Assembly (NCBI GenBank): GCA_038065915.1
Contig: JBBTPZ010000014.1
Coordinates: forward strand, 1-40,131
Direction: 5' to 3'
Length of the DNA: 40,131 bases
From: Patescibacteria group bacterium
Lineage (GTDB): Bacteria > Patescibacteriota > Minisyncoccia > Phycocordibacterales > 21-14-all-36-13
Below the pieces are notes generated by a model, which worked only from the letters and a program-made list of their open reading frames with translations, had not been told where the DNA came from and made no database searches. The position numbers were made by a program, and so were the translations under genes. Below, one piece after another: positions 2,387-39,537 of this stretch (positions within the stretch are counted from its first letter, which is position 1; every line of letters starts with the position of its first letter).

Positions 2387-3266
2387 AAATAAAGCGAGAT
2401 TGGCAATCTTTGCCGTTGTGCTATTTATTTTTTTTCTCGTTTCCTATTTTGACTTTGATGTAAAAATAAAAACGAGGACAGAATCTAATGTGGAAAAATT
2501 AACTCAATCTGATTATTTGCAAAAAGAAGTTTTGCCAGAAAATGGTGTGGAATTACCGGTTGTTTGGGGCGATATTGGAAAAAAGTTAACGGATTCAGGA
2601 GTGATAGATTCTAAAAAATTTGAAGGCCTCTACAACAAAAGAGGCGGGTTGGATGACGAAGAAAAATCTCTTCTGTATGCAGAAAATAACGGAAAAATTA
2701 TAATTACAAAAGAAAACTCTGGTTTCATACTGAATATTTTTTGGGCGCTTGGCCTATCCAACAAAAATTCTGTTTTAGAAAAAGGACCAATGATGAATCC
2801 TGAATATGGCGGAGCGGAGAATTTTGCTTCCACAGGCGGGTGGACAATTGCCAATGGAAATATTATGAATCATTATAGCGCGCATTCTTTTGTTGTACTC
2901 ACAAAAGAACAACAGGAACTTGTAGAAAGAGTATCCAAAAATATTTATCGTCCGTGTTGTGGAAATTCAACTTACTTTCCCGACTGCAACCACGGAATGG
3001 CGATGCTCGGACTTCTGGAATTGATGGCGTCTCAAGGCGTGAGTGAACAGGATATGTATAAAATAGCTCTTCAGGTTAATTCGTTTTGGTTTCCCGGTAC
3101 ATATTTAACAATAGCTAAATATTTTGGAATGAGAAATGTAGAATGGAAAGATATTAATCCAAAAGAAGTGTTGGGAGAAATTTATTCAAGCGGTCAAGGA
3201 TACAAACGAATTCTTCAAGAATTAGAACCGGAAAAAATTCAAGGTGGTGGAGGATGCTCCGCTTAA
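2367..3266 (+). CDS. Membrane-anchored extracytoplasmic Cys/His-motif protein (RPCCGNSTYFPDCNHGMAM), paralog A; function unknown, putative metal/thiol chemistry
   Basis: N-terminal TM helix and a conserved C-terminal domain shared with 3314..4300. Ends in GGGGCSA. I cannot name the family. Confidence 0.75.
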   Translation: MKILNTKNKARLAIFAVVLFIFFLVSYFDFDVKIKTRTESNVEKLTQSDYLQKEVLPENGVELPVVWGDIGKKLTDSGVIDSKKFEGLYNKRGGLDDEEKSLLYAENNGKIIITKENSGFILNIFWALGLSNKNSVLEKGPMMNPEYGGAENFASTGGWTIANGNIMNHYSAHSFVVLTKEQQELVERVSKNIYRPCCGNSTYFPDCNHGMAMLGLLELMASQGVSEQDMYKIALQVNSFWFPGTYLTIAKYFGMRNVEWKDINPKEVLGEIYSSGQGYKRILQELEPEKIQGGGGCSA

Positions 3267-3313
3267 TAATATTAATTGTTAAATAAAAATTTGATATTAG
3301 CAATTAAAAAATC

Positions 3314-4300
3314 ATGACGATAGATGACCAAAACAACGAAGATTTTTCCAACAAGAAAGTATCATCGCAAACTAACGTTACGGACAAGCGTAATTTTGCG
3401 CTTTCTGTGAGTATTGTTATTACTGCTCTAATTTTAGGGTTTGCGTGGATTTATACTGTAAAGCTCAAAATATCATTGCAAGCCAAGAATCAAATAGAAA
3501 CGGAAACACAATTGTCAGTTGAAGAAGCAATTGAATTGCCTTTGCGTTGGGATAATCTCGGAGTGCAAATGATTGATGCAGGCGTAATTAATCAAGAAGC
3601 ATTTGAGTCAATTTATGCACAGCGCGGAGGTTTGGACTCTCAAGAAAAACAACTTCTTCTTGGCAAATCCAACGGCACTATAAAAATTAATCAACAAAAT
3701 GCCGGCTTTTTTCTAAATTTTCTTTGGGCATTTGGGCTAAGCAACAAAAATTCAATTCTTGAAAATGGCCCCATGATGGACCCACAATATGGCGGAACGG
3801 AGAATTTTGCTTCCACAGGCGGGTGGACAATTGCCAATGGAAATATTATGAATCATTATAGCGCGCATTCTTTTGTTGTACTCACAAAAGAACAACAGGA
3901 ACTTGTAGAAAGAGTATCCAAAAATATTTATCGTCCGTGTTGTGGAAATTCAACTTACTTTCCCGACTGCAATCACGGAATGGCGATGCTCGGACTTTTG
4001 GAACTTTTAGCCGCACAGGGAATTGATGAACAAACTATTTACAAAGTAGCGCTTGAAGTAAATAAACTTTGGTTTCCCGAACAATACAATGTCATTACGC
4101 AATATTTATTGAATAACAATAAAAATATTGAAAATATTAATCCTAGAGAGATTTTGGGAATAAATTATTCCAGCGCTTCGGGGTATGGTCGAATTTTACA
4201 ATCCGTCGGCCCCCAACCTTCAAAAGATAGTGTTAATTGTAGTATCGGGGGAGAAAGCACGGCTCCAGCTCAATCAAGTGGCAGTGGTTGCGGAATTTAA
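3314..4300 (+). CDS. Membrane-anchored extracytoplasmic Cys/His-motif protein, paralog B
   Basis: Same architecture and motif as 2367..3266. Cys-containing tail (VNCSIGG...SGSGCGI). Confidence 0.75.
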   Translation: MTIDDQNNEDFSNKKVSSQTNVTDKRNFALSVSIVITALILGFAWIYTVKLKISLQAKNQIETETQLSVEEAIELPLRWDNLGVQMIDAGVINQEAFESIYAQRGGLDSQEKQLLLGKSNGTIKINQQNAGFFLNFLWAFGLSNKNSILENGPMMDPQYGGTENFASTGGWTIANGNIMNHYSAHSFVVLTKEQQELVERVSKNIYRPCCGNSTYFPDCNHGMAMLGLLELLAAQGIDEQTIYKVALEVNKLWFPEQYNVITQYLLNNNKNIENINPREILGINYSSASGYGRILQSVGPQPSKDSVNCSIGGESTAPAQSSGSGCGI

Positions 4301-13569: not shown

Positions 13570-14421
13570 ATGACCAAAGATAATAAAAACAAAGAAAAAG
13601 GACATTATCACCCTCTCACTATAGCGATGCTTAAAATCGGCAAGATTTTTGATGATTTAGGGTTTGAAATAACGGACGGTCCACACATAGAGGACGAATA
13701 TCATAATTTTGATGCACTTAATATCCCCGCGGATCACCCAGCGCGAGATATGTGGGATACCTTTTGGATTAAGACGCAAATTAACGCAGATAAAAAACCG
13801 CAGATAAATGCAGATAAAAACATCGGCGTAAATCTGCGTGAAAATCTGCGAGAATCTGCGTTATTAAGAACTCACACTTCTCCCGTCCAAATTAGATATA
13901 TGGAGAAAAATAAACCTCCCATAAAAATTATTGCTCCCGGTAAAATTTTTAGATATGAAGCAACAGATGCGACACACGAAGCGCAATTCTATCAATTAGA
14001 GGGACTAATGATTACTAAAAACACAGCTCTTACAACCCTTAAGGGTGTTTTGAAAGAGTTTTTAGAAAAATTTTTTGAAGAAAAAATTAATATTCGTTTT
14101 CGTCCAAGTTATTTTCCATTCGTTGAACCCGGACTTGAAGTTGATGCAACCTGTTTTAAATGTGTAAAAAATCTTTCGACGACGCTCAAGACAGGGAAAA
14201 TAAATTCAAGTTGTTCAATATGCAAAGGAACTGGATGGATAGAAATAATGGGCGCAGGGATGGTTCATCCAAATGTCTTAGAAAATTGTGGAATTAATCC
14301 ACAAGAATGGCAAGGTTTTGCATTTGGAGTAGGAATAGACAGATTGGTTATGCTTAAATATGAAATTCCAGACATAAGAATGCTTTATTCGGGGGACTTG
14401 AGATTAACAAATCAATTTTAG
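13570..14421 (+). CDS. pheS: Phenylalanine--tRNA ligase alpha subunit (short form lacking the N-terminal coiled coil)
   Basis: HPARDMWDTFW, LLRTHTSPVQIRYM, FRYEATDATHEAQFYQLEGL and GWIEIMGAGMVHPNVL. Confidence 0.9.
   Translation: MTKDNKNKEKGHYHPLTIAMLKIGKIFDDLGFEITDGPHIEDEYHNFDALNIPADHPARDMWDTFWIKTQINADKKPQINADKNIGVNLRENLRESALLRTHTSPVQIRYMEKNKPPIKIIAPGKIFRYEATDATHEAQFYQLEGLMITKNTALTTLKGVLKEFLEKFFEEKINIRFRPSYFPFVEPGLEVDATCFKCVKNLSTTLKTGKINSSCSICKGTGWIEIMGAGMVHPNVLENCGINPQEWQGFAFGVGIDRLVMLKYEIPDIRMLYSGDLRLTNQF
13775..13860 (+). repeat. GCAGAT-array palindromic element inserted in frame in pheS
   Basis: The left arm has cgcaaat/cgcagat/cgcagat/tgcagat at 13775, 13785, 13799 and 13809. The right arm has atcggcg/atctgcg x3 at 13822, 13832, 13844 and 13854. 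It is translated as TQINADKKPQINADKNIGVNLRENLRES. Confidence 0.8.
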
Positions 14422-14485
14422 AAAAATAGGGAGTTGTCTGGTGGTAGACAACGACTATATTTTTCTTAACCCCGCCCTTTTATTT

Positions 14486-14713
14486 ATGTATTATGTGTAT
14501 GTTATAAAAAGAAATAATAAATTTTATTTTGGTTTCTCGAAAGATTTAAAGAGAAGATTTAAACAGCATGCAAAAAATTATTCTTGCGAAATGGTGTATT
14601 ATGAAGCTTACGCGACAGAAAAGTTAGCGCGTAATAGGGAAATAAAATTAAAAGAATATGATGGAGCTTGGCGCTCATTACGAAAACGTTTAAATATAAA
14701 AAGGGCGGGGTGA
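14486..14713 (+). CDS. Small GIY-YIG nuclease-family protein (UPF0213-like)
   Basis: MYYVYVIKRNNKFYFGFSKDLKRRFKQH...ARNREIKLK matches the GIY-YIG pattern. The ATG at 14486 is preferred over the GTG at 14441. Confidence 0.75.
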   Translation: MYYVYVIKRNNKFYFGFSKDLKRRFKQHAKNYSCEMVYYEAYATEKLARNREIKLKEYDGAWRSLRKRLNIKRAG

Positions 14714-14750: not shown

Positions 14751-17114
14751 ATGCTCATATCATATAAATGGCTTCAAGAATATTTTAACGGGAAACTTCC
14801 AGATTCAAAAAAGATTAAGGATGTTTTAACTATGCATTCATATGAAATTTCTGAGGTTTCAAAAGACAAAGATGATTTTATTTTTGATATAGATGTATTG
14901 CCTAATAGAGCCCACGATTCGCTTTCTTATTTTGGAATTGCGCGTGAGGTAGAAATGCTTTTTGATTTAAAAACAAAATTTTCAGATGTAGAGAATGTTA
15001 AAATAGATAAAAACTTAAAATCATCAGATTTTTTAACTTTAAAAATTGAAAATCCAAATGAATGCAGGCGAGCAACAAAACGACTCGTTGTTGATGTTCA
15101 AGTTAAAGAATCGCCGGAGTGGCTTAAAGAAAAATTATTAAAATTTGGACAAAAATCTATAAATAACATTATTGATGTAACTAATTTTGTAATGATGGAA
15201 ACAGGACAGCCGGTTCATGCTTTTGATTTTGATAAATTAATTACAGGGACAAACAATAAAAAAAATATTTCAATACAGTTAGCAAAGAAGGGAGAAAAAA
15301 TAACTACACTTGATGAAAATCATTATGTTTTAGACGAAAATACTCTGGTAATTCACGACGGAGAAAAACCGCTTGATATTGCGGGAATAAAAGGAGGAAT
15401 AGATACGGGCATAGATGAAAAAACAAAAAAGATTGTTTTGTCTGTATGTAATTTCAATCCTAAAAGTATAAGAAAAACATCTAAAAAATTAGGGTTACAA
15501 ACAGAGGCGTCAAAAAGATTTGAAGCAGATATAAGTCCAGAGTTGGTTTATACGGCGATGCAGAGATTGTCTCAGCTCGTTTCGGAATTATCCGGCGGTA
15601 AGATGAGTGAAGATATTTTGGATGAATATCCGAGAAAATCAAATCCATACAAGATGGGTGTTTCGGTTGATGAAATTAATAAAATTTTAGGGACTGAAAT
15701 AAAAGAAAAAGAATTTGAAAAAATTTTAGACAAACTCGGGTTTGAATACAAAAAAATAAAACCACTTGATGAAATTAAAAAAATTATTCCAGAACTTGAA
15801 GGCAAGCCATATAAATTTGGCGCGAGCGTGAGTTTTGACGCGCCAAATTATTTTGATTGTTCATCTCTAACGGCATATTTGTTTGTACAGGCAGGAATTC
15901 AAATTCCAAGAGTTTCAATTGACCAATATGTTTTTGGTGAAGAAATTTCTAGGAAAGAAGCAAGATTTGGTGATTTAATATTTCTAAATACCGGCAATGG
16001 AAAAATTTATTACGAAACAATAGATTTTATAAAAGGAACAAAAGTTCAGGAAGGAGTTGACCACTGTGGTTTGTATTTAGGAGACGAAAAGGTCTTACAC
16101 ACATCTCGCCTTAATGGAAATAAAGTTGATGTTCAAAATATAGAAAAAAACCCTTCTTTCAAAACAATTATTGGTTATAGAAGATTTACAGATAATGAAA
16201 AAAGATATGTTTTGACAATTCCTTATTACAGAAATGATATTAGAATAAAAGAAGATTTGGCGGAAGAAATAGGAAGAATATTTGGTTATGAAAATATTTC
16301 TTATGATTTGCCAAAAGAAATATCAAAACCTAAAGTTGATAAGATTTTTTACTATTCAAGTTTAATTAAAAACTTTTTTATAACTGAAGGTTTTTCAGAA
16401 GTTTATAATTATGCATTTGTAGACAATGGGGAAGTTGAGCTTTTGAATCCTTTAGCTGGTGATAAAAAATATTTAAGAAGTTCAGCGACAGAACAAGTTA
16501 AATACAATTTAGAATTCAATTCAAAATATTCTGATGTGCTAGCTCTTGATGATATTAAGATTTTTGAAATAGGCAAAATTTATAAAAAAAATGGAGAGAA
16601 ACTCTATTTATCTATGGGTGTAAAAAAGAAAAAAGAAAAAGATACACAGAATTATATTGAAGAAATAAAAAATAAACTTTCAGAGATTTTACAGACAAAA
16701 ATCGTTGCAAAGGCGGAGAGTAATATATTAAATATTGATTTAGAAGATTTGGTCAATAAACTCCCAAATGTTAATTCATACGGAAAAGTATTTGAAGAGT
16801 TTTCTGAAAATTATAAAAACACCGGAATAAAATATAAAAATATTTCACAATATCCGTTTGTTTTGAGAGATATTGCTGTTTGGGTTCCATTAGAAATAAA
16901 AAGCGAAGAAGTTTTAAATATTATTAAAGAAAACGCCGGAAATTTGTTTGTTCAAAGTAAATTATTTGATAAATACAAAAAAGATAAAAAGGTTTCATAC
17001 GCGTTTCGATTGGTTTTTCAGTCACAAAGCAAAACTTTGACGGATGACGAAGTAGGGGAAGTGATGAAAAAAATAGAAGACAAAATAGTCAAAAAAGGGT
17101 GGGAGGTTAGGTAA
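14751..17114 (+). CDS. pheT: Phenylalanine--tRNA ligase beta subunit with an embedded NlpC/P60-like domain
   Basis: N-terminal MLISYKWLQEYF, B3/4 (NNIIDVTNFVMMETGQPVHAFD), B5 (IPYYRNDIRIKEDLAEEIGRIFGYENI) and the C-terminal anticodon-binding-like domain. See findings for the insertion. Confidence 0.9.
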   Translation: MLISYKWLQEYFNGKLPDSKKIKDVLTMHSYEISEVSKDKDDFIFDIDVLPNRAHDSLSYFGIAREVEMLFDLKTKFSDVENVKIDKNLKSSDFLTLKIENPNECRRATKRLVVDVQVKESPEWLKEKLLKFGQKSINNIIDVTNFVMMETGQPVHAFDFDKLITGTNNKKNISIQLAKKGEKITTLDENHYVLDENTLVIHDGEKPLDIAGIKGGIDTGIDEKTKKIVLSVCNFNPKSIRKTSKKLGLQTEASKRFEADISPELVYTAMQRLSQLVSELSGGKMSEDILDEYPRKSNPYKMGVSVDEINKILGTEIKEKEFEKILDKLGFEYKKIKPLDEIKKIIPELEGKPYKFGASVSFDAPNYFDCSSLTAYLFVQAGIQIPRVSIDQYVFGEEISRKEARFGDLIFLNTGNGKIYYETIDFIKGTKVQEGVDHCGLYLGDEKVLHTSRLNGNKVDVQNIEKNPSFKTIIGYRRFTDNEKRYVLTIPYYRNDIRIKEDLAEEIGRIFGYENISYDLPKEISKPKVDKIFYYSSLIKNFFITEGFSEVYNYAFVDNGEVELLNPLAGDKKYLRSSATEQVKYNLEFNSKYSDVLALDDIKIFEIGKIYKKNGEKLYLSMGVKKKKEKDTQNYIEEIKNKLSEILQTKIVAKAESNILNIDLEDLVNKLPNVNSYGKVFEEFSENYKNTGIKYKNISQYPFVLRDIAVWVPLEIKSEEVLNIIKENAGNLFVQSKLFDKYKKDKKVSYAFRLVFQSQSKTLTDDEVGEVMKKIEDKIVKKGWEVR

Positions 17115-20956: not shown

Positions 20957-20998
20957 ATTATCTTAAATCTAATATCTAATATCTAAAATCTATATTTT

Positions 20999-23402: not shown

Positions 23403-23451
23403 AAAAATTAAAAATTAAAAATTAAAAATTAAAAATTAAAAATTAAAAATA
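23403..23451 (+). repeat. 7-bp tandem repeat (AAAAATT)x6 plus a partial unit, directly upstream of the ArsR-type start codon
   Basis: Read directly from the sequence. It ends 6 nt before the ATG at 23458. Confidence 0.9.
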
Positions 23452-23457
23452 TAAAAA

Positions 23458-23956: not shown

Positions 23957-24799
23957 ATGGCACCTGATAAGTATAAATCTATATGGGTATCGCATTCTTC
24001 TATGGGAGATTTTCTAAAATGTCCACGAACTTATTATTTACATAATGTTTATAAAGACCCTAAAACAGGAAGAAAAATAAATATTGTCAGTCCATATCTT
24101 TCTCTTGGTCAGGCGGTTCATACAACACTTGAATTATTAAAAAATATCCCCGTTGAAGAAAGAATGAAACGAGATCTTTTAGATGATTTTGAAGACGCTT
24201 GGTTACAAGTATCTGGGAGAAAAGGAGGATTTAAGAATGACGATGAAGAAAATGAATTTAAAAAACGAGGTGTTGAAATGATAAAACGAGTTATAAAAAA
24301 CCCTGGACCGATTGCAAATAAAACTGTAAAGATAAAATGTGGACACAATAATATGCCACCCAATTTTTATCTTTCTGAAGACGAAAACATAATATTATGT
24401 GGACTTATTGATTGGTTGGAATACATTAAAGAAGATGATAGCGTTCGTATTCTTGATTTTAAAACTGGTAAAAATGATGAAGCCGAGGATTCTCTCCAAC
24501 TCCCGATTTATCTCTTACTTTTGAATACTTTACAAAAAAGAAAAATTTCCGGAGCATCATATTGGTATTTGAATAAAGATGATAAACCTACGAAGATGAT
24601 ATTACCCGACATTAATGAAGCTAAAGAAAAAGTACTCGCTGTTGCTTTGAAAGTTAAAGAAGCCAGAGAAAAAGAAACTTTTAATTGTCCTCGTGGAGAA
24701 AAAGGATGTTTTGCTTGCAAACCATACGAATCTATTTTGAAAGGCGAGGCGGAATATCTTGGTACTGGTGGCTACGGACAGGATATGTATTTTTTGTAG
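23957..24799 (+). CDS. PD-(D/E)XK nuclease, Cas4/RecB/AddB-nuclease-like, with putative Fe-S cysteines
   Basis: One N-terminal Cys (FLKCPRTYYL), GLIDW...ILDFKTGK (D...DxK), QLPIYLLL (QxxxY) and a C-terminal CPRGEKGCFAC cluster. Confidence 0.75.
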   Translation: MAPDKYKSIWVSHSSMGDFLKCPRTYYLHNVYKDPKTGRKINIVSPYLSLGQAVHTTLELLKNIPVEERMKRDLLDDFEDAWLQVSGRKGGFKNDDEENEFKKRGVEMIKRVIKNPGPIANKTVKIKCGHNNMPPNFYLSEDENIILCGLIDWLEYIKEDDSVRILDFKTGKNDEAEDSLQLPIYLLLLNTLQKRKISGASYWYLNKDDKPTKMILPDINEAKEKVLAVALKVKEAREKETFNCPRGEKGCFACKPYESILKGEAEYLGTGGYGQDMYFL

Positions 24800-26150: not shown

Positions 26151-26162
26151 ATCGCAGATGAA

Positions 26163-26236
26163 CCCCGAAGAAAAGCAAGCTTCCTACGGGGCAGGCGCAG
26201 ATAAAAACCCGCAGATGTTCGCAGATAAAAAACAAG
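26163..26236 (+). repeat. Intergenic solo arm of the GCAGAT array, with a nested GC hairpin
   Basis: cgcagat occurs at 26163, 26206, 26220 and 26230. The spacing would be 10/14/10 if the 33-nt gaaccccgaag...cttcctacggggcagg insert after the first unit were removed. Confidence 0.75.
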
Positions 26237-26278
26237 AAAGCAAAAAAGCAAAAAAAACAAGAAAACAACAAAACAAGA

Positions 26279-26318
26279 AAACCACTTTCTAATTCGCGCG
26301 AATTAGAAAGTGGTTTTT
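26279..26318 (+). terminator. Rho-independent terminator of ychF
   Basis: aaaccactttctaattcgc/gcgaattagaaagtggttt is a perfect stem followed by a T-run. Confidence 0.85.
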
Positions 26319-27756: not shown

Positions 27757-30700
27757 ATGAAAAAATACGACCATTTTAAAATTGAACAAAAATTCCAGAA
27801 AAAATGGGAAAAAGAAGGAATTTATAATACAAAAGAAGACAAAAGCAAACAAAAATATTATTGTCTTGTAGAGTTCCCATATGCATCAGGAGAAGGATTA
27901 CATGTTGGCCATGTTAGAAGTTATACAGCACTTGATATTGTCGCAAGAAAAAAAAGGATGGAAGGACTTAATGTTTTATATCCAATAGGTTGGGATGCGT
28001 TTGGTTTACCAACGGAAAATTATGCGATTAAGACAGGAGTAAATCCTAAAATAATAACTAAAAAAAATACAAATAATTTTAGAAAACAATTAAAATCACT
28101 TGGATTTTCATTTGATTGGTCTCGTGAAATTAATACTTCAAGTCCTGAATATTACAAATGGACTCAGTGGATATTTTTGCAGTTTTTTAAACATGGATTG
28201 GCATACAAAAAAAGAATGCCGATTAATTGGTGTTTGAGTTGTAAGATTGGTTTAGCAAATGAAGAAGTTGTTAATGGTGTTTGTGAAAGGTGTGGAGGAC
28301 AAGTTGAAAAAAGAGAAAAGGAACAATGGATGTTGGCAATCACAAAATATGCCGAAAGATTATATGATGATTTGGACAAGACAGAATTTTTGGAAAAAAT
28401 AAAAATTCAACAAAGAAATTGGATAGGAAAAAGTCACGGCGCACTCATTTCATTCGCGCTTGTAACTTCGCAGATTATTGCAGATAAAAAACTGCAGATA
28501 AACGCAGATGGAAAGATTGTTTTAATTACGAATGTTCAAGAGTTTAGAGAAAATGTAAATATTGATTCAAAATTAAAAATAGAAGGAAGAGAATTTTCTA
28601 TAAAAGAATTAATTAAGTTCAAACTAGATGACGGTTCTTTTTATCTGAAACTCTTTTTAAGCGGTGGGTATGTTTTGGCCGATGATTTAAATAGTAACTC
28701 TTTTATTTTAGTGAAAGAAAAGGATACAAATTTGAAAATAGAAGAAGATGATATAACTTTTGAAAATAAAAAATATAGTTTCAGTTATAAAGCTCATGCA
28801 ATTGCAGAAGAAGTTTTTGGTGAGGAGATATTCAAAAAAGGGGAGAGCGAGACATTCTGGGATTATACATCTGGCAATAATTATTTAAGTTTGGGTATAG
28901 TAGATAAAAATAAAAAAAGATTGGATTTTCTTGGGAAAACAATTAAAGCTGACAAAATTGAAGTAACAAATCTGCGTGAATCTGCATCCAATCTGCGTTC
29001 ATCCGCGACATTTACGAAAGTAAATGTTTTTACGACAAGACCGGACACACTTTTTGGTGCGACGTATTTAGTTTTAGCACCAGAACATGAATTGATTAGA
29101 AAATTTATTGAAAATAAAGAAATAGAAAATATAAAAGAAGTTGAAAAATATATTTCTGAAACTGCAAAAAAGAAAGATATAGACAGAACAGCTGAAGGCA
29201 AACAAAAAACGGGTGTTGAATTAAAGGGAATAAAAGCCACAAACCCCGTAAACAAAAAAGAAATTCCAATTTTCATAGCTGATTATGTTTTAGCCGGATA
29301 CGGGACTGGTGCAATAATGGCTGTGCCGGCACACGATGAACGCGATTATGCCTTTACATCGCAGATGAACGCAGATAAAAAAACGCAGATAGACGCAGAT
29401 AAAATTGAAATAATAAAAGTTATTGAAAGCAATGAAAATTTATACACAGGTTATGGGAAATTAATTAATTCAGGAAAATTTGATGGAATGGAAAGTAATG
29501 AAGCAATAAAGGAAATTACTAAATTTGTTGGTGGGGAATTGAAGACAGTTTATAGTTTGAGGGATTGGATATTTTCAAGACAGAGATATTGGGGAGAACC
29601 TATTCCACTCGTTTTTTGCAACGAGTGCAAAAAACGAGTGGAAAATTCCAAATTACAAATTCCAAATCACAAACAAGTTCCAAATTCAAAATCCAAAATT
29701 CAAAACCAAGAATTTAACGAAGGTGAGTTGTTAAATCCAGGATGGGTTGTTGATGAAAATCTCCCGCTTGAGCTTCCTGATGTAAAAAAGTATGAACCGA
29801 CTGATTCTGGAGAATCACCGCTTGCTTCAGTTGAAAAATGGGTAAATGTTAAATGTCCAAAATGTGGTGGCCCGGCAAAAAGAGAAACAGATACAATGCC
29901 GAACTGGGCTGGTTCTTCTTGGTATTGGTTGAGATATACTGACCCAGAAAATGATAAAGTTTTTGCTGATGAAAAGAAATTAAAATATTGGACTCCCGTT
30001 GATTGGTATAACGGAGGAATGGAACACACGACACTTCACTTGCTTTACTCTCGTTTTTGGCATAAGTTTCTTTTTGATATTGGTTTGGTTCCAACAGACG
30101 AACCATACATAAAGAGAACTTCCCACGGAATGATTCTTGGAGACGGAGGAGAAAAGATGTCAAAGTCCAGAGGAAATGTCATTAATCCCGATGACATAAT
30201 TGAAAGATTTGGAGCCGACTCATTTAGATTGTATGAAATGTTTTTAGGACCGTTTGACCAGCAAACAAGTTGGAATTCTGACGGAGTTGTTGGAACGAGA
30301 AGATTTGTTGAAAAAGTTTATGGTCTTTCCGAAAAAATAGTTGATAGTGAAAATGAAAGTGTAAATAATTTTTTAAACAAAACAATAAAGAAAGTTGGTG
30401 AAGATATTGAAAATATGAAATTTAATACGGCGATAAGTTCAATGATGATGTTTTTAAATTTTGTTTATGATGAAAATAAAATTAGCAAAGATAGTTATAA
30501 AAAATTTCTAAAAATTCTTTCGCCGTTTGCGCCACATGTGACAGAGGAATTGTGGTCAGAAACAGGGGAAAAAGAATCTATTCATAAAAGCAAGTGGCCT
30601 GAATATGATGAAATAAAAGAAAATGAAAATTTTACTATTGTTGTTCAGGTAGATGGAAAAATCAGAGATAAATTTATTGTAGCCAGCAATCTTAGTGAAA

Positions 30701-30816
30701 ATGAAATAAAGGACAAGGCCATTTCTTTGGAGGCGGTTTTAAGATGGGTGGGAGATAAAAAAATAAAAAAAACTATATATATAAAAGACAAGCTTGTAAA
30801 TATTGTTACAATTTAA
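27757..30816 (+). CDS. leuS: Leucine--tRNA ligase carrying several lineage-specific in-frame insertions
   Basis: HVGHVRSY (HIGH), NWIGKS, VFTTRPDTLFGATY, AVPAHDERDY, RQRYWGEPIP and KMSKSRGN. At 1019 aa it is much longer than typical bacterial LeuS. Confidence 0.95.
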   Translation: MKKYDHFKIEQKFQKKWEKEGIYNTKEDKSKQKYYCLVEFPYASGEGLHVGHVRSYTALDIVARKKRMEGLNVLYPIGWDAFGLPTENYAIKTGVNPKIITKKNTNNFRKQLKSLGFSFDWSREINTSSPEYYKWTQWIFLQFFKHGLAYKKRMPINWCLSCKIGLANEEVVNGVCERCGGQVEKREKEQWMLAITKYAERLYDDLDKTEFLEKIKIQQRNWIGKSHGALISFALVTSQIIADKKLQINADGKIVLITNVQEFRENVNIDSKLKIEGREFSIKELIKFKLDDGSFYLKLFLSGGYVLADDLNSNSFILVKEKDTNLKIEEDDITFENKKYSFSYKAHAIAEEVFGEEIFKKGESETFWDYTSGNNYLSLGIVDKNKKRLDFLGKTIKADKIEVTNLRESASNLRSSATFTKVNVFTTRPDTLFGATYLVLAPEHELIRKFIENKEIENIKEVEKYISETAKKKDIDRTAEGKQKTGVELKGIKATNPVNKKEIPIFIADYVLAGYGTGAIMAVPAHDERDYAFTSQMNADKKTQIDADKIEIIKVIESNENLYTGYGKLINSGKFDGMESNEAIKEITKFVGGELKTVYSLRDWIFSRQRYWGEPIPLVFCNECKKRVENSKLQIPNHKQVPNSKSKIQNQEFNEGELLNPGWVVDENLPLELPDVKKYEPTDSGESPLASVEKWVNVKCPKCGGPAKRETDTMPNWAGSSWYWLRYTDPENDKVFADEKKLKYWTPVDWYNGGMEHTTLHLLYSRFWHKFLFDIGLVPTDEPYIKRTSHGMILGDGGEKMSKSRGNVINPDDIIERFGADSFRLYEMFLGPFDQQTSWNSDGVVGTRRFVEKVYGLSEKIVDSENESVNNFLNKTIKKVGEDIENMKFNTAISSMMMFLNFVYDENKISKDSYKKFLKILSPFAPHVTEELWSETGEKESIHKSKWPEYDEIKENENFTIVVQVDGKIRDKFIVASNLSENEIKDKAISLEAVLRWVGDKKIKKTIYIKDKLVNIVTI
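28469..29007 (+). repeat. Composite in-frame insertion in leuS: inverted GCAGAT-array arms bracketing ~460 nt of extra coding sequence
   Basis: The left arm has (c/t)gcagat at 28469, 28479, 28493 and 28503. The right arm has atctgc(g/a) at 28970, 28980 and 28991, plus atccgcg at 29001. The cargo stays open in the leuS frame. Confidence 0.8.
29360..29400 (+). repeat. Solo GCAGAT-array arm in frame in leuS
   Basis: cgcagat at 29360, 29370, 29384 and 29394 (spacing 10/14/10), translated as SQMNADKKTQIDADK just after the AHDERDY motif. Confidence 0.8.
29646..29706 (+). repeat. 7-bp-periodic low-complexity tract (TNCAAAN)n inside leuS
   Basis: The units are ttccaaa ttacaaa ttccaaa tcacaaa caag ttccaaa ttcaaaa tccaaaa ttcaaaa. 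It is translated as NSKLQIPNHKQVPNSKSKIQNQ. Confidence 0.7.
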
Positions 30817-35761: not shown

Positions 35762-38700
35762 ATGGCAAAAGAAAAAGAAAACAAAAAAATAATTGAAGAA
35801 AAAAAAATTGATAAGAATATCATAGATCAGGACATAAGTTCTGAAATGAGAACTTCCTATTTGGATTATGCGATGTCTGTTATAACGAGTAGAGCATTAC
35901 CCGATATAAGGGACGGGATGAAACCTGTTCACAGAAGGATTTTGTATGCTATGCACGATATGGGATTAAACGCTTCCGCAAAAACGAGAAAGTCGGCAGC
36001 TATAATTGGTGAAGTTCTCGGAAAATATCACCCACACGGAGACGCTTCTGTTTATGATGCGATGGTTAAACTTGCTCAAGATTTTTCAATGAGGTATCCA
36101 CTTGTTATTGGACAGGGAAACTTTGGCTGTTTTACAAAGGACACAAAAGTCAAACTGGCTGATGGCCGCAGTTTAAGCTTTGAAGATTTAATTAAAGAGT
36201 ATAAAAAGGGGAAAAAGAATTATACATACACAGTCAATCCAACTGGATTAATTTCGATTGCCGAAATTAAAAACCCCAGAGTAACTAGAAAAAATACTGA
36301 AATTATGAAAATTATATTGGACAATGGAGAAGAAATCAAATGTACTCCCAATCATTTATTCATGATGAAGGATAGTGTTTATAAAAAAGCAAAAGATTTA
36401 AAATTTGGCGAATCATTAATGCCTTTATATGAAAAATTATCGGAAAAAACTGATTATCTGAATCGTGATGGTTATATTTTAATATATCAAAATAAAATTG
36501 ACGAATGGATACCCGCGCACCATTTAGCTGATAACTACAACTTAACCGCTAAGAAATATTCAAAAAGAGAAGGTCGGGTAAGGCATCATTTAGATTTCAA
36601 CAAACTCAATAATAATCCTGATAATATACAAAGAATGGATTGGGGCGAACACTGGCGCATTCATTATGAACAGACCGCCAATTTGCATAAAAAGAAAGAA
36701 TATAGGGAAAAAATTGCTGAAGGAAGGAAGAAATTTTGGTCTAATCCAATTAATAGGGCAGAATACGCAAAAAGAATTTCTGAACGAAATTTTAAAAATT
36801 GGCAAAATTCTGAATATAGAGAAAAAATGAGTAAATTTTTGAGCGTGGCCAATAAAAAATATATTCAAAACCATCCAGAAAAAAGAATCGAATTTTCTAA
36901 ACGAGCGACAGAAACACTAAAAAAACTATGGCAAGATCCAGTTTATCAAAAACTGTTTCACGAAAAAATCGTTAGCGCGAACAAAAAAAGAATTACTAAC
37001 AATACCGGCAAGGTTAAGTTTCTTAAAATATGCCGAGAAGTTTTGAAAGAACATAAAATTTTAAATCAGGATTTATATAAACAAAAACGGGATATGATTT
37101 ACAGATACGGTTGTGCGACTTCTTGGCAAACCGGCATACAAAAATATTATAATAATGACGAGAAAATCTTGCTTGATGCTTTAAATAAAAACCACAAAGT
37201 TATAGAAATAAAATTCTTAAAACAAAAGGAAGATGTATATGATATAACAATAGAAAAAAGCCATAATTTTGCTCTAGCCGCGGGAGTTTTTGTTCACAAT
37301 TCGATTGATGGTGACCCCGCCGCCGCTCAAAGATATACAGAAGCAAAAATGTCAAAGCTTGCGGGAGAAATGATAAAGGACTTGGAAAAAGATACTGTAG
37401 ATTTTAAACCAAACTATGAAAACACAAGGAAAGAACCTGTAATACTTCCATCTGCAGTTCCAAATCTTATTTTAAATGGAACACTTGGTATTGCTGTTGG
37501 TATGGCAACAAACATACCTCCACATAATATAAAAGAAATTATTGATGCCACTGTTCATCTTATTGATAATAAAAATGCGACAACCGAAGAATTGGCTAAA
37601 TTTGTAAAGGGTCCGGATTTTCCAACCGGCGGGATAATTTTTGGAAGACAGGATATATTACACGCATATGTAAATGGAAGAGGGGGAATTTTAGTTAGAG
37701 GTGAGGCAGAAATATTTGAAGAAAAACCAGGACAGTTTCAAATAGTGATATCGTCAATTCCCTACAGAGTTAATAAAGCGGAACTTATACAAAAAGTAGC
37801 TGATTTAGTCAGAGACAAAAAGATAGAAGGAATAAGAGGCATCCGTGACGAATCAACGAAAGATATAAGAGTTGTAATAGAACTCAAGTCCGGTGCACAG
37901 CCAAATAAAATATTAAATTCATTGTATAAACACACTCAACTTGAAGACACTTTCCATGTGAATATGGTTGGTCTTGTTGACGGTGTTCCACAAACCTTAT
38001 CTTTAAAAACAATTTTAGAAGAATTTGTTTCTCATAGAATTATTGTGATAAAGAGAAGAACGGAATTTGATTTAAAAAAGACAGAGGCGAGAGAGCACAT
38101 TTTGATAGGTCTTAAAAAGGCCTTGGATTATATTGATAAAATAATAAAATTGATAAAGGCATCAAAAGATGCGCAAACCGCACACACGAATCTTATAAAA
38201 GAATTTAAATTTTCTCCACTTCAAGCAACCGCAATTCTTGAAATGAAATTGCAGAAATTGGCAGGATTGGAAAGAAAAAAACTGGAAGACGAATTGGAGG
38301 AAAAAAGAAATCTGATAAAAGAATTAAAATCCATTCTTGCTTCACCACACAAAATACTTTCAATCATTAAGGATGAGATGAAGGAAATAAAAGAAAAATA
38401 TGGCGATGAAAGAAAAACAAAAGTTTTTGCAAACAGAATTAAAGATATATCTGTTGAAGATATGATTCCAAACAAAGAAGAGGTCTTGGTTTTCACTGCT
38501 GGCGGTTATATAAAGAGGACGGACCCAACAGAATTTAAAACACAAAAAAGAGGAGGTGTTGGAGTTGTTGATATAAATACCAAGGAAGAGGATTTTGTAA
38601 CAAAATTTTTAACAGCATCCACTCATAGTGATTTATTATTTTTTACAGACAAAGGTAAAGTGTACCAGATAAAAATGTATGATTTGCCAGAAGGAAGAAG

Positions 38701-39403
38701 GGCTACAAGAGGAAAATCAATAATGAATTATATTTCTCTCGGAGAAGATGAAAAAATAACATCCATATTGCCGACGACGGCAGGAAAAGAAAAAGAAGGA
38801 TTGTCTCTTTTGATGCTCACAAAAAGCGGTGTTGTAAAAAAGACACTGGCCAAGAATTTTTCTGATGTTCGCAGAAGTGGAATTATTGCAATAAATCTTT
38901 CAAAAGATGACGAGCTTGTCTCCGCATCTTTTGTTGAAAAAGGAGACACTGTTGTTGTGGTAACAAAAAAAGGACAATCCATACACTTCAAGGAGATTGA
39001 CATAAGGGCTATGGGGAGAACTGCAGCTGGGGTTCGCGCAATTAAATTAGGTAAACAAGATGAAGTTGTTGGTATTGATATTGCGAAGAAAGACCTTAAA
39101 GATATTCAATTGCTTGTTATAACAAAAAATGGCTATGGCAAGAAAACACCACTAAAAGAGTATAAAGTTCAAAAAAGAGGAGGAAGTGGTATAAAAACAG
39201 CGAAAATAACCCCAAAAACAGGTGAATTAATGTCGTCAAAACTTGTTACTGATGTGGAAGAAGAAATAATATCAATATCAAAAAAAGGGCAGGTTATAAG
39301 AATAGATATTGAAGAAATACCAACATTGGGCAGGCAGACACAGGGAGTTAGAATAATGAAACTTAGAGATGGGGATAGTATTGTATCCTTAATCTGCTTG
39401 TAA
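35762..39403 (+). CDS. gyrA: DNA gyrase subunit A, interrupted by a 391-aa intein
   Basis: The exteins read [28 protein letters not shown] | [17 protein letters not shown], and are followed by the C-terminal beta-pinwheel repeats. Confidence 0.95.
36128..37300 (+). mobile_element. Intein with an HNH-type homing-endonuclease domain
   Basis: It starts with Cys ([13 protein letters not shown]) and has block B (CTPNHLF). It ends ...[22 protein letters not shown] followed by Ser+1. The internal HNH motif is [28 protein letters not shown], followed by repeated (W/Y)xNxEYREK-like helical modules. Confidence 0.9.
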
Positions 39404-39488
39404 TCTTTTCCCCACTTTTAAAACTAAATTAAGATTTTTGTTATATAATTTAAGTTCACCCTGTTAAATAATTTTAAGAATAATTTTT

Positions 39489-39537
39489 CAGATTTGAGAT
39501 TTCAGATTTTAGATTTTAGATTTTAGATTTGAGATTA
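39489..39537 (+). repeat. (AGATTTT)n 7-bp tandem repeat upstream of the methyltransferase gene
   Basis: The units are cagatttg agattt cagatttt agatttt agatttt agattt gagatt. The inverse family (ATCTAAN)n lies at 20960-20996, upstream of 20999..22255. Confidence 0.8.

Follow-up and report, generated by a model that had tools for sequence, protein, structure and literature searches.

The stretch of DNA analysed here, hereafter the window, comprises 40,131 nucleotides of a Patescibacteria group bacterium (contig JBBTPZ010000014.1), and its subject is a palindromic array of short repeats that lies in frame within pheS, the gene for the alpha subunit of phenylalanyl-tRNA synthetase (PheRS). The window has a GC content of 33% and a gene content typical of Patescibacteria and the candidate phyla radiation (CPR), namely DUF5671, a short PheS, a PheT with an NlpC/P60 insert and a GyrA with an intein. 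The palindrome spans 86 bases inside this essential gene. Its forward arm is composed of the units CGCAAAT (13775), CGCAGAT (13785), CGCAGAT (13799) and TGCAGAT (13809), spaced by 10/14/10 nt, and it faces a reverse arm formed by ATCGGCG (13822) and three copies of ATCTGCG (13832, 13844 and 13854), spaced by 10/12/10 nt. The direct and the inverted repeat families were both recovered by a repeat search of the window. As RNA, the segment is predicted to form a four-segment interrupted hairpin of -34.5 kcal/mol, with a z-score of -6.25 and none of 200 shuffles folding as well. A sequence-only reading of the same DNA had described these units, their spacings and the hairpin, all of which are confirmed here, and had proposed that about 28 extra residues of PheS represent an in-frame copy of a dispersed repeat; the PheS alignments and the repeat search agree with this proposition, except that the insertion measures 27 residues (69-95).

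These 27 residues have no counterpart in PheS of P. aeruginosa (161->163 in the PDB sequence match), the alignment with PheS of S. haemolyticus is split around them too, and the PDB matches of PheS break exactly there. The comparison of orthologues with and without the insert, which the sequence-only reading had recommended, revealed both filled and empty forms. Both the window and Parcubacteria Athens0714_16 carry the insert, with variants bearing nested extras in P0242, P0244, P0245, P0246 and P0249 and diverged forms in lineages of 60-64% identity, and the site is empty in the close relatives P0247 and P0248, which read WLKPENSKLLLRTHTS, as well as in others. The site is filled in lineages of 60-90% identity, with a patchy distribution across orthologues. 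When polymorphism for presence or absence was sought at an identity of at least 90%, only frameshifted or partial copies were found, all of them bearing the insert. Between the window and Athens0714_16 the element is 94% identical and the rest of pheS 85% identical overall, the corresponding values at third codon positions being 86% and 67%. Three of the eight units in the window have drifted off the consensus, and the Athens copy retains one more canonical unit. In the AlphaFold2 (AF2) model of PheS, the insert has a predicted local distance difference test score (pLDDT) below 50, which is what would be expected of a flexible surface loop. Because the two arms are separated by only 6 nt, the pheS copy is regarded as a gene-less derivative.

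Arms of the same kind occur elsewhere in the window (Table 1). With at most one mismatch, GCAGATAAA is found 37 times against an expectation of 15 +/- 3.5, the exact copies being clustered at the arms named here, and GCAGAT is found 19 times on the + strand against about 8 expected, almost all of the excess lying within five clusters. The recurrences listed by the sequence-only reading do correspond to arms, at the revised coordinates given in Table 1. That reading had not recognised that two of them bound an insertion with a domain as cargo, nor that the family spans many phyla. The two arms of site 1 in LeuRS enclose an insertion of 185 aa, at the equivalent of residues 236->242 of T. thermophilus LeuRS, which is restricted to the window and Patescibacteria KR11_S3.mb.10; the 83%-identical protein of Athens0714_16 and the other LeuRS compared have no such cargo. 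Stand-alone homologues of about 150 aa exist for the DUF4178-type cargo, the homologue P0363 scoring above the DUF4178 cut-off, and a DUF4178-type copy also occupies site 1 in another LeuRS. Overall, the window, KR11, P0101 (52% identity) and P0361 carry an insertion at site 1; in Athens and P0003-7 the site is empty. At site 2, about 5 residues are replaced by about 16 relative to P0003-P0007, a change common to the window, Athens and KR11.

The coding copies share a common frame, as had been suggested from Ala-Asp in the forward and Asn-Leu-Arg in the reverse arms: forward arms read (T/S)Q(I/M)xADKKxQIxAD and reverse arms NLRE/NLRS/SA. This bias towards a single frame is a consequence of the unit spacing, 10 and 14 nt in alternation, and of the AAA behind the units: GATAAA yields TAA, and the other two frames are closed; the sole stop-free frame of the forward arm is also the hydrophilic one. 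In open reading frames (ORFs) of CPR-like loci, solo arms lie in the GCAGAT sense in 23 cases and in antisense in 5, the latter being mostly reverse arms of long elements or belonging to doubtful ORFs. The antisense reading of the arm is open yet hydrophobic, and selection at the protein level may therefore be sufficient to explain the bias towards sense arms. Since the genic copies keep the frame and are free of stops, they are presumably read through and not cut out.

Table 1. Arms, cargo and host genes of the array family in the window
Feature	Position	Strand	Remarks
pheS (PheRS alpha subunit, 283 aa), host of the element	13570-14421	+	Pfam tRNA-synt_2d, E = 1e-96
pheS element, forward arm	13775-13815	+	read as (T)QINADKKPQINAD
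pheS element, centre (6 nt, AAAAAC)	13816-13821	+	position of the cargo ORF in the full-length relatives L093 and L153
pheS element, reverse arm	13822-13860	+	read as (I)GVNLRENLRES(A)
Example of a predicted peptide from the PheS insert	13775-13860		TQINADKKPQINADK
Intergenic forward arm, right after the ychF stop codon	26153-26226	+	units at 26153 (26153-26159), 26196, 26210 and 26220 (26196-26226)
leuS (LeuRS, 1019 aa), carrying three arms	27757-30816	+	Pfam and PDB matches
LeuRS site 1, forward arm	28469-28509	+	CGCAGAT, TGCAGAT, TGCAGAT, CGCAGAT; 10/14/10; read as SQIIADKKLQINAD
LeuRS site 1, in-frame cargo (DUF4178-family domain of ~152 aa)	28510-28969	+	weak Pfam match to DUF4178
LeuRS site 1, reverse arm	28970-29007	+	ATCTGCG, ATCTGCA, ATCTGCG, ATCCGCG; 10/11/10; read as NLRESASNLRSSA
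LeuRS site 2, solo forward arm in the editing domain	29360-29400	+	CGCAGAT x4; 10/14/10; read as SQMNADKKTQIDAD

Distribution of the arrays and their association with GxxExxY genes

When one genome per species was scanned with the pattern GCAGATAAA-N5-GCAGAT-N4-GCAGAT, 28 loci were recovered, ten of them in Parcubacteria Athens0714_16 and five in KR11_S3.mb.10. The other hosts were Lutibacter, another Bacteroidota bin, Saprospiraceae, Cyanobacteriota, Omnitrophota and Cloacimonadota, together with three Burkholderiales and one Usitatibacter metagenome-assembled genomes (MAGs) of high GC content (65-69%). In almost all of these loci each GCAGAT is preceded by a C and another unit, the fourth, lies 10 nt upstream, features that the pattern does not require; many loci also have a facing ATCTGCG arm. 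A second scan, of metagenomes with a four-unit pattern, added 100 loci, whose arrays comprise 3 to 21 units, giving 128 array-selected loci. Alternating spacings of 10 and 14-15 nt dominate across the arrays taken together, figures that are partly biased by the way in which the loci were ascertained, and a C stands at position -1 in 89% of cases. The architecture is constant from CPR genomes of 30% GC to Burkholderiales of 69% GC, the spacers drifting with the composition of the host and the heptamer remaining the same; the consensus end is an inverted array of about four helically phased CGCNGAT heptamers with 10/14/10 spacing. Among viral contigs (IMG/VR), a three-unit pattern gave only chance matches, in a few families of related phage-like contigs, with no element, and Rfam at gathering thresholds matched only a tRNA in the window and nine loci.

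No gene common to the first 28 loci was found. It was only with the 128 loci that an all-against-all comparison of ORFs brought out a protein of about 125 aa, GxxExxY (TIGR04256, E = 9e-41; PF13366 PDDEXK_3, E = 7.5e-40), as the largest cluster of neighbouring ORFs, in 14 loci, some of which are chained via fusion ORFs. GxxExxY is the only recurrent ORF between arms, and no transposase or recombinase family recurs near the arms in the 128 loci, nor does one in the window. In L064 the gene (3482-3856) lies between a 21-unit array and reverse arrays of 9 and 16 units, and it is likewise found exactly between forward and reverse arrays in L046, L113 and L042. The cassette also occurs in frame within proteins of CPR bacteria that are close ecological relatives. 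In RecG of L093, a 7-unit forward arm, TQIKEPQINADNETQIDADNETQMSAD, precedes a GxxExxY domain (E = 5e-52) that is followed by the reverse arm HLRASASNLHQSA; LepA of CPR bacteria holds a full cassette in frame (P0121, P0122); and in LeuRS of P0101 a GxxExxY cassette flanked by SSQTIADLTQNDAE and VLRESASVQRSSAT sits at the site of the long insertion of the window. Cassettes can also be wedged tightly into operons, as between fabD and fabG in Sphingomonas.

The association was then read in the opposite direction, from 16 GxxExxY genes chosen by protein similarity alone, whose flanks were subsequently inspected. These genes came from metagenomes, an IMG/VR contig and finished plasmids or chromids of cultured Bacteroides, Bernardetia, Gemmatirosa and Prevotella. 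At least three phased exact 6-mers were present on a flank in 12 of the 16 (shuffle p <= 0.01), usually with the reverse complement on the opposite side. Six of the seven genes from metagenomes and IMG/VR, which represent Chlamydiota, Parcubacteria, Giovannonibacteria and other groups, have CGC(A/T/G)GAT-type units at one or both ends of the ORF: immediately before the start codon and/or, as ATC(N)GCG, immediately behind the stop codon. The seventh, L145, displayed the same layout with the heptamer CAC(A/G)AAG. At the GxxExxY gene, the replicons of Bacteroides finegoldii (protein WP_032839887) and Bernardetia bear CACAGAG / CTCTGTG and that of Prevotella ACAAATC / GATTTGT, and Gemmatirosa has CGCGGAT and CGCAGAG hairpins, with a complete hairpin beside the gene and not around it. 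Within a GxxExxY clade the heptamer does not vary, and some of the clades have different ones (CGCNGAT; CACAGAG/CACAAAG; TACGAAA; ACAAATC; CGCAGAG).

GxxExxY is modelled by AF2 with confidence (pLDDT 91), as a minimal PD-(D/E)XK fold. Searches with the protein in PDB sequences, with PADLOC and with Foldseek on the model gave only generic PD-(D/E)XK similarity, and tblastn against phage genomes gave no match. A survey of PD-(D/E)XK proteins lists PF13366 as of unknown function, with multiple horizontal transfers. In the literature on GxxExxY, PF13366 and TIGR04256 only incidental mentions and no link to repeats were found; no published description of the element family was found either, a search with the heptamer string having returned only primers.

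Several array loci are unusual in their own right. Arrays reach 14-21 GCAGAT units, with a period of about 24 nt, in L064 (3189-4439), where they form a large inverted structure around the GxxExxY gene, and also in L057, L049, L044, L058 and L076. Two heptamer-array hairpins, one of which has reverse units of the form ATCCGCG, and a GIY-YIG ORF break up the 16S rRNA gene of KR11 (L039 1100-2120 and L053 2500-3480, minus strand). In L039, five tandem copies of ACGCGGACTTA with an 11-nt period (~3170-3225, minus strand) stand immediately 3' of the CGCAGAT arm at 3241-3280. Contiguous heptamer tandems are found between genes in the window, namely TATCTAA x4.9 (20959-20992), AAAAATT x7.7 (23403-23457) and TTTTAGA x7.3 (39486-39536). 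They recall the STRR (short tandemly repeated repetitive) sequences of cyanobacteria, on which a literature search yielded nothing relevant, and heptamer runs also adjoin the arrays in L017, L044 and L058.

Nature of the element and proposed mode of spread

We consider it probable that the pheS segment is a cargo-less copy, either non-autonomous or decayed, of a family of selfish cassettes whose full-length form holds GxxExxY between inverted arrays of phased heptamers. Compared with such a cassette, the pheS copy has the inverted arrays of at least three phased heptamers, with four in each arm, and lacks GxxExxY between them. With more reserve, it can be tentatively hypothesised that GxxExxY and its arrays constitute a previously undescribed class of selfish DNA crossing phyla, in which the nuclease would recognise the arrays and spread both gene-bearing and gene-less copies, and which in Patescibacteria would enter essential genes in frame as well as rRNA genes, adding linkers and domains. 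The arrays would most likely serve the GxxExxY nuclease as cis-acting sites, in homing or in mobilisation. With the DNA in duplex form, several nuclease subunits may bind to the phased heptamers of each end. In homing, the nuclease would cut uninterrupted hairpin copies or empty sites, and repair would copy the cassette in; alternatively, it could mobilise the arm pair in trans, as is supposed for RAYT with REPINs, the gene-less hairpins being either mobilised in this manner or products of decay. In the small, AT-rich genomes of Patescibacteria, copies would land in essential genes and in rRNA genes, and within protein genes only those with a stop-free frame would persist, as hydrophilic linkers (QINADKK... 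/ NLRENLRES) in disordered surface loops.

The mechanism supposes that protein binds the arms as duplex DNA. From their sequence features we favour the arms being putative duplex-DNA sites rather than a selected hairpin, on the grounds of the association with GxxExxY, the phasing by about 10 bp, the unpaired spacers and the mismatched central bases. Of 51 cases of facing units, only 17 could pair at the central base, less than the expected fraction of 0.49, and in many Bacteroidota-type elements CGCAGAT faces ATCAGCG; in addition, the spacers show no complementarity between the arms, whose spacings are unequal (10/14/10 versus 10/12/10). These same features speak against a structured nucleic acid, in which the functional form would be a hairpin of RNA or single-stranded DNA (a stem similar to those of RNase III substrates or intervening sequences, a terminator or an mRNA stabiliser) with the heptamers as its helical segments. 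The strong predicted fold of the pheS segment would be consistent with such a role, as would the copies inside the CPR 16S rRNA gene, where a hairpin extension is tolerable, one Omnitrophota copy in which ATCTGTG facing CGCAGAT is compatible with G-U pairing, and the frequent position of intergenic copies at gene ends. Given also that solo arms dominate in CPR coding regions, that the genic copies are presumably read through and that no Rfam family matches, we regard this role as improbable.

A second rival retains the arrays as recognition sites of the nuclease and differs from the cassette proposal only in what moves the gene-less hairpins. The heptamer hairpins would be independent landing pads, spread by another function of the host or of an element, and small selfish ORFs (GxxExxY, DUF4178-type and perhaps others) would home into their centre, the arms serving as recognition site and as homology for repair. 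It is in keeping with this idea that the same arms enclose different cargos (GxxExxY in L093 and L153, DUF4178 in LeuRS of the window), that cargo-less hairpins and solo arms are far more numerous than gene-bearing copies, that tandem runs of hairpins without genes occur in a polysaccharide locus of Lutibacter, and that the complete hairpin of Gemmatirosa adjoins its gene instead of enclosing it. However, the type of heptamer tracks the GxxExxY clade, and most of the genes selected by protein have arrays right at their start or stop codons, as would be fitting for arrays owned by the cassette; landing pads are accordingly judged rather unlikely.

It could also be supposed that a DDE or serine transposase encoded elsewhere, of IS607- or hAT-like architecture, uses the arrays as its subterminal sites, the elements being miniature inverted-repeat transposable elements (MITEs) of a classical insertion sequence (IS) and the GxxExxY genes mere passengers. 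The inverted arms would suit such a relationship, and subterminal repeats are known in hAT elements. The closest parallel is the left end of IS1535, an IS607 element, in which four direct, helically phased 9-bp motifs over about 40 bp nucleate the cooperative binding of four recombinase dimers (PMC6188088). IS607 elements differ from the present family in having a serine recombinase, tnpA/tnpB and GG ends, and in lacking terminal inverted repeats (PMC6188088). IS607 was rejected as a parent on the basis of its recombinase gene, of the inverted ends and of the GG termini, the outermost unit here being (N)CGCNGAT, and it is retained only as a mechanistic analogue. Terminal inverted repeats are thus the one feature of MITEs that was found, with neither a target-site duplication at the PheS and LeuRS sites nor, in the 128 loci, a parent IS whose transposase shares the ends. 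As the sole ORF recurring between the arms is GxxExxY and no transposase recurs near them in the 128 loci or in the window, a classical MITE appears highly improbable.

Replication slippage in an AT-rich genome, producing hydrophilic repeat loops unrelated to mobile DNA, would account for other short-unit arrays in the same genes (TTCCAAAT x4 in LeuRS of the window, AAATCTC x4 in LeuRS of Athens) and for the expansion of arrays to as many as 21 units. The recurrence of an identical heptamer, spacing and inversion in unrelated genes of many phyla, from 30 to 69% GC, and the tie between arrays and a specific gene family render it scarcely credible as a general explanation; slippage as the origin of the family is effectively refuted, and it may contribute to changes in unit number. 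Of the rivals, a role in RNA structure, a classical MITE and simple slippage are each compatible with fewer of the results than the cassette proposal.

Several observations nevertheless weigh against the cassette proposal. The GxxExxY ORF was not found in the 40-kb window, and the long copy in LeuRS of the window carries a DUF4178-type domain and not a nuclease, so that arms can also enclose something other than GxxExxY. Solo forward arms make up the majority of CPR copies, and a model based on a pair of ends leaves this unexplained. Four of the 16 protein-selected genes have no clear arrays, and two GxxExxY clades that are only about 33% identical share CGCNGAT. The model of the protein has only weak similarity (template modelling score of about 0.5) to lambda exonuclease, Cas4 and Hjc, and no obvious separate DNA-binding domain. 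Finally, no target-site duplication was found in PheS or LeuRS, where filled and empty sites differ by the replacement of a few codons, and this comparison shows no clean boundary of the element. A 7-nt match, ATTAAGA, flanking the pheS copy was considered as a target-site duplication and rejected: it would add 95 nt, out of frame, and so cannot be a frame-keeping duplication, and its right copy encodes the conserved LLR.

Comparison with known systems suggests that the gene and its hairpins resemble REPIN/RAYT and that the pheS copy resembles, in function, the Rickettsia palindromic elements (RPE) reportedly described by Ogata and colleagues in 2000, the family appearing to fall outside the definitions of RPE, REPIN/RAYT, MITE and IS607. 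The parallel with RPE, already drawn in the sequence-only reading, is apt as an analogy: both are short palindromes dispersed in a reduced genome, in frame in essential protein genes and in RNA genes, which yield extra surface peptides and for which no transposase is known. The window conforms to this picture, in that the palindrome lies in frame in protein genes without disruption (27 additional aa in PheS, sites 1 and 2 in LeuRS), a resemblance that is functional only. No sequence relation to RPE is apparent. RPE are said to measure about 100-150 bp, to have no array of phased heptamers and no nuclease gene, and to be confined to lineages of the Rickettsia and Wolbachia type, and the present family is set apart from them by its spread over many phyla and its gene-bearing form.

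Homing endonuclease genes include free-standing and PD-(D/E)XK types such as I-Ssp6803I. They share with GxxExxY a small and patchy nuclease ORF, the repeated colonisation of one site in orthologues that have diverged (here LeuRS, PheS and rRNA) and the existence of degenerate or empty derivatives. They differ in that the present ORF is not housed in an intron or intein and can be fused in frame to the host protein, and in that the ends are repeat arrays with many gene-less copies at unrelated sites. An intein was rejected, Pfam finding Hint/intein domains only in GyrA and not in PheS or LeuRS, the inserts of which have no Cys/Ser/Thr...Asn junction residues. The intervening sequences of 23S rRNA, with their four-helix-bundle ORF (PF05635), likewise have a small ORF between inverted repeats and reside in rRNA genes; genes of the PF05635 family are also present among the array-selected loci, one of them directly adjoining an arm. 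However, those sequences are excised from rRNA by RNase III and belong to another ORF family, whereas the present copies, where they lie in protein genes, have to be retained in the mRNA.

The RAYT enzymes are HUH/Y1 transposases of the IS200 type that act on single-stranded hairpins of repetitive extragenic palindromic (REP) sequences with GTAG/CGTC heads (PMC3116915, PMC3337134). Like the REPIN/RAYT system, the present family combines many gene-less hairpins of two inverted repeats with a small enzyme gene flanked by those repeats, and the repeats can form tandem runs of alternating orientation. Unlike RAYT, the enzyme is a PD-(D/E)XK nuclease (TIGR04256/PF13366) and not an HUH/Y1 transposase. 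In contrast to the imperfect palindrome of 20-40 nt that constitutes a REP, the arm is made of four spaced CGCNGAT units, is not palindromic and has no GTAG/CGTC head. Facing units are often mismatched, and whereas REPINs are extragenic, the present elements are genic as well.

As the full-length form carries GxxExxY, the repeat offers this protein family a first testable function, that is, sequence-specific action of the widespread PF13366/TIGR04256 proteins on CGCNGAT arrays. If this is true, the system would stand beside the REPIN/RAYT and RPE paradigms as a counterpart based on a nuclease, and it would account for part of the unusual length variation and insertions in the housekeeping proteins and rRNA genes of CPR bacteria. 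It would also represent a route by which selfish DNA puts linkers and complete domains into essential enzymes without lethality. At the practical level, such repeats break CPR assemblies and gene calls, as in the leuS contig of one strain (P0409).

Further arms and insertions in the window

The arm beside ychF has no reverse arm and is interrupted after its first unit by a mini-hairpin of 33 nt (CCCCGAAG...CTTC..CGGGG). Past this arm, A-rich repeats of CAAGAAA(A/G)C (26227-26282) are followed by an intrinsic terminator, and the layout of the whole region (26160-26318) is repeated in L026 of Athens.

A second in-frame insertion in LeuRS (29640-29710, aa 625-663) consists of four direct TTCCAAAT units with a spacing of 14/19/13; it is not palindromic, gives no fold signal (z = +1.2) and is shared by the window, Athens, KR11 and P0004, whereas P0003, P0005 and P0007 lack it. 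At the same site, LeuRS of P0012 has an arm of CGCAGA type (AQNDADLTQTNAE). In leuS of Athens0714_16 (L036), AAATCTC x4 arrays, read as KSKISNLKSENK and ISKLKSQISNFK, lie at site 1 and about 40 codons downstream, in loops that hold CGCAGAT arms in the window. In a strain whose LeuRS is at least 90% identical (P0409), the contig begins inside the reverse arm, the junction being NLRKSASNLRESATSVEVFTTRPD where the window has NLRESASNLRSSATFTKVNVFTTRPD; the arm varies at the level of strains, and the assembly is broken at the repeat. Many LeuRS of Patescibacteria bear whole extra domains (NUDIX, Ham1 and serine hydrolase), among them P0012, P0019 and P0028, in which Ham1 and hydrolase domains are placed at the CP1 junction and NUDIX inside the editing region. 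This suggests that the CP1 junction and the editing region are hot spots for domain insertion.

Other nucleases and inserts are found in the neighbourhood. An ORF for a GIY-YIG nuclease of 90 aa (14441-14713) is wedged between pheS and pheT, the latter directly following pheS in the relative L152, and a similar GIY-YIG ORF is the one within the 16S rRNA gene of KR11 (L039/L053). An ORF of 280 aa at 23957-24799 encodes a PD-(D/E)XK_1/Cas4-like nuclease, which is not GxxExxY. PheT (14751-17114) contains an NlpC/P60 peptidase domain (aa 351-477) in its B5 region, also present in L152, and GyrA (35762-39403) contains an intein with Intein_splicing/Hint matches at about aa 121-513.

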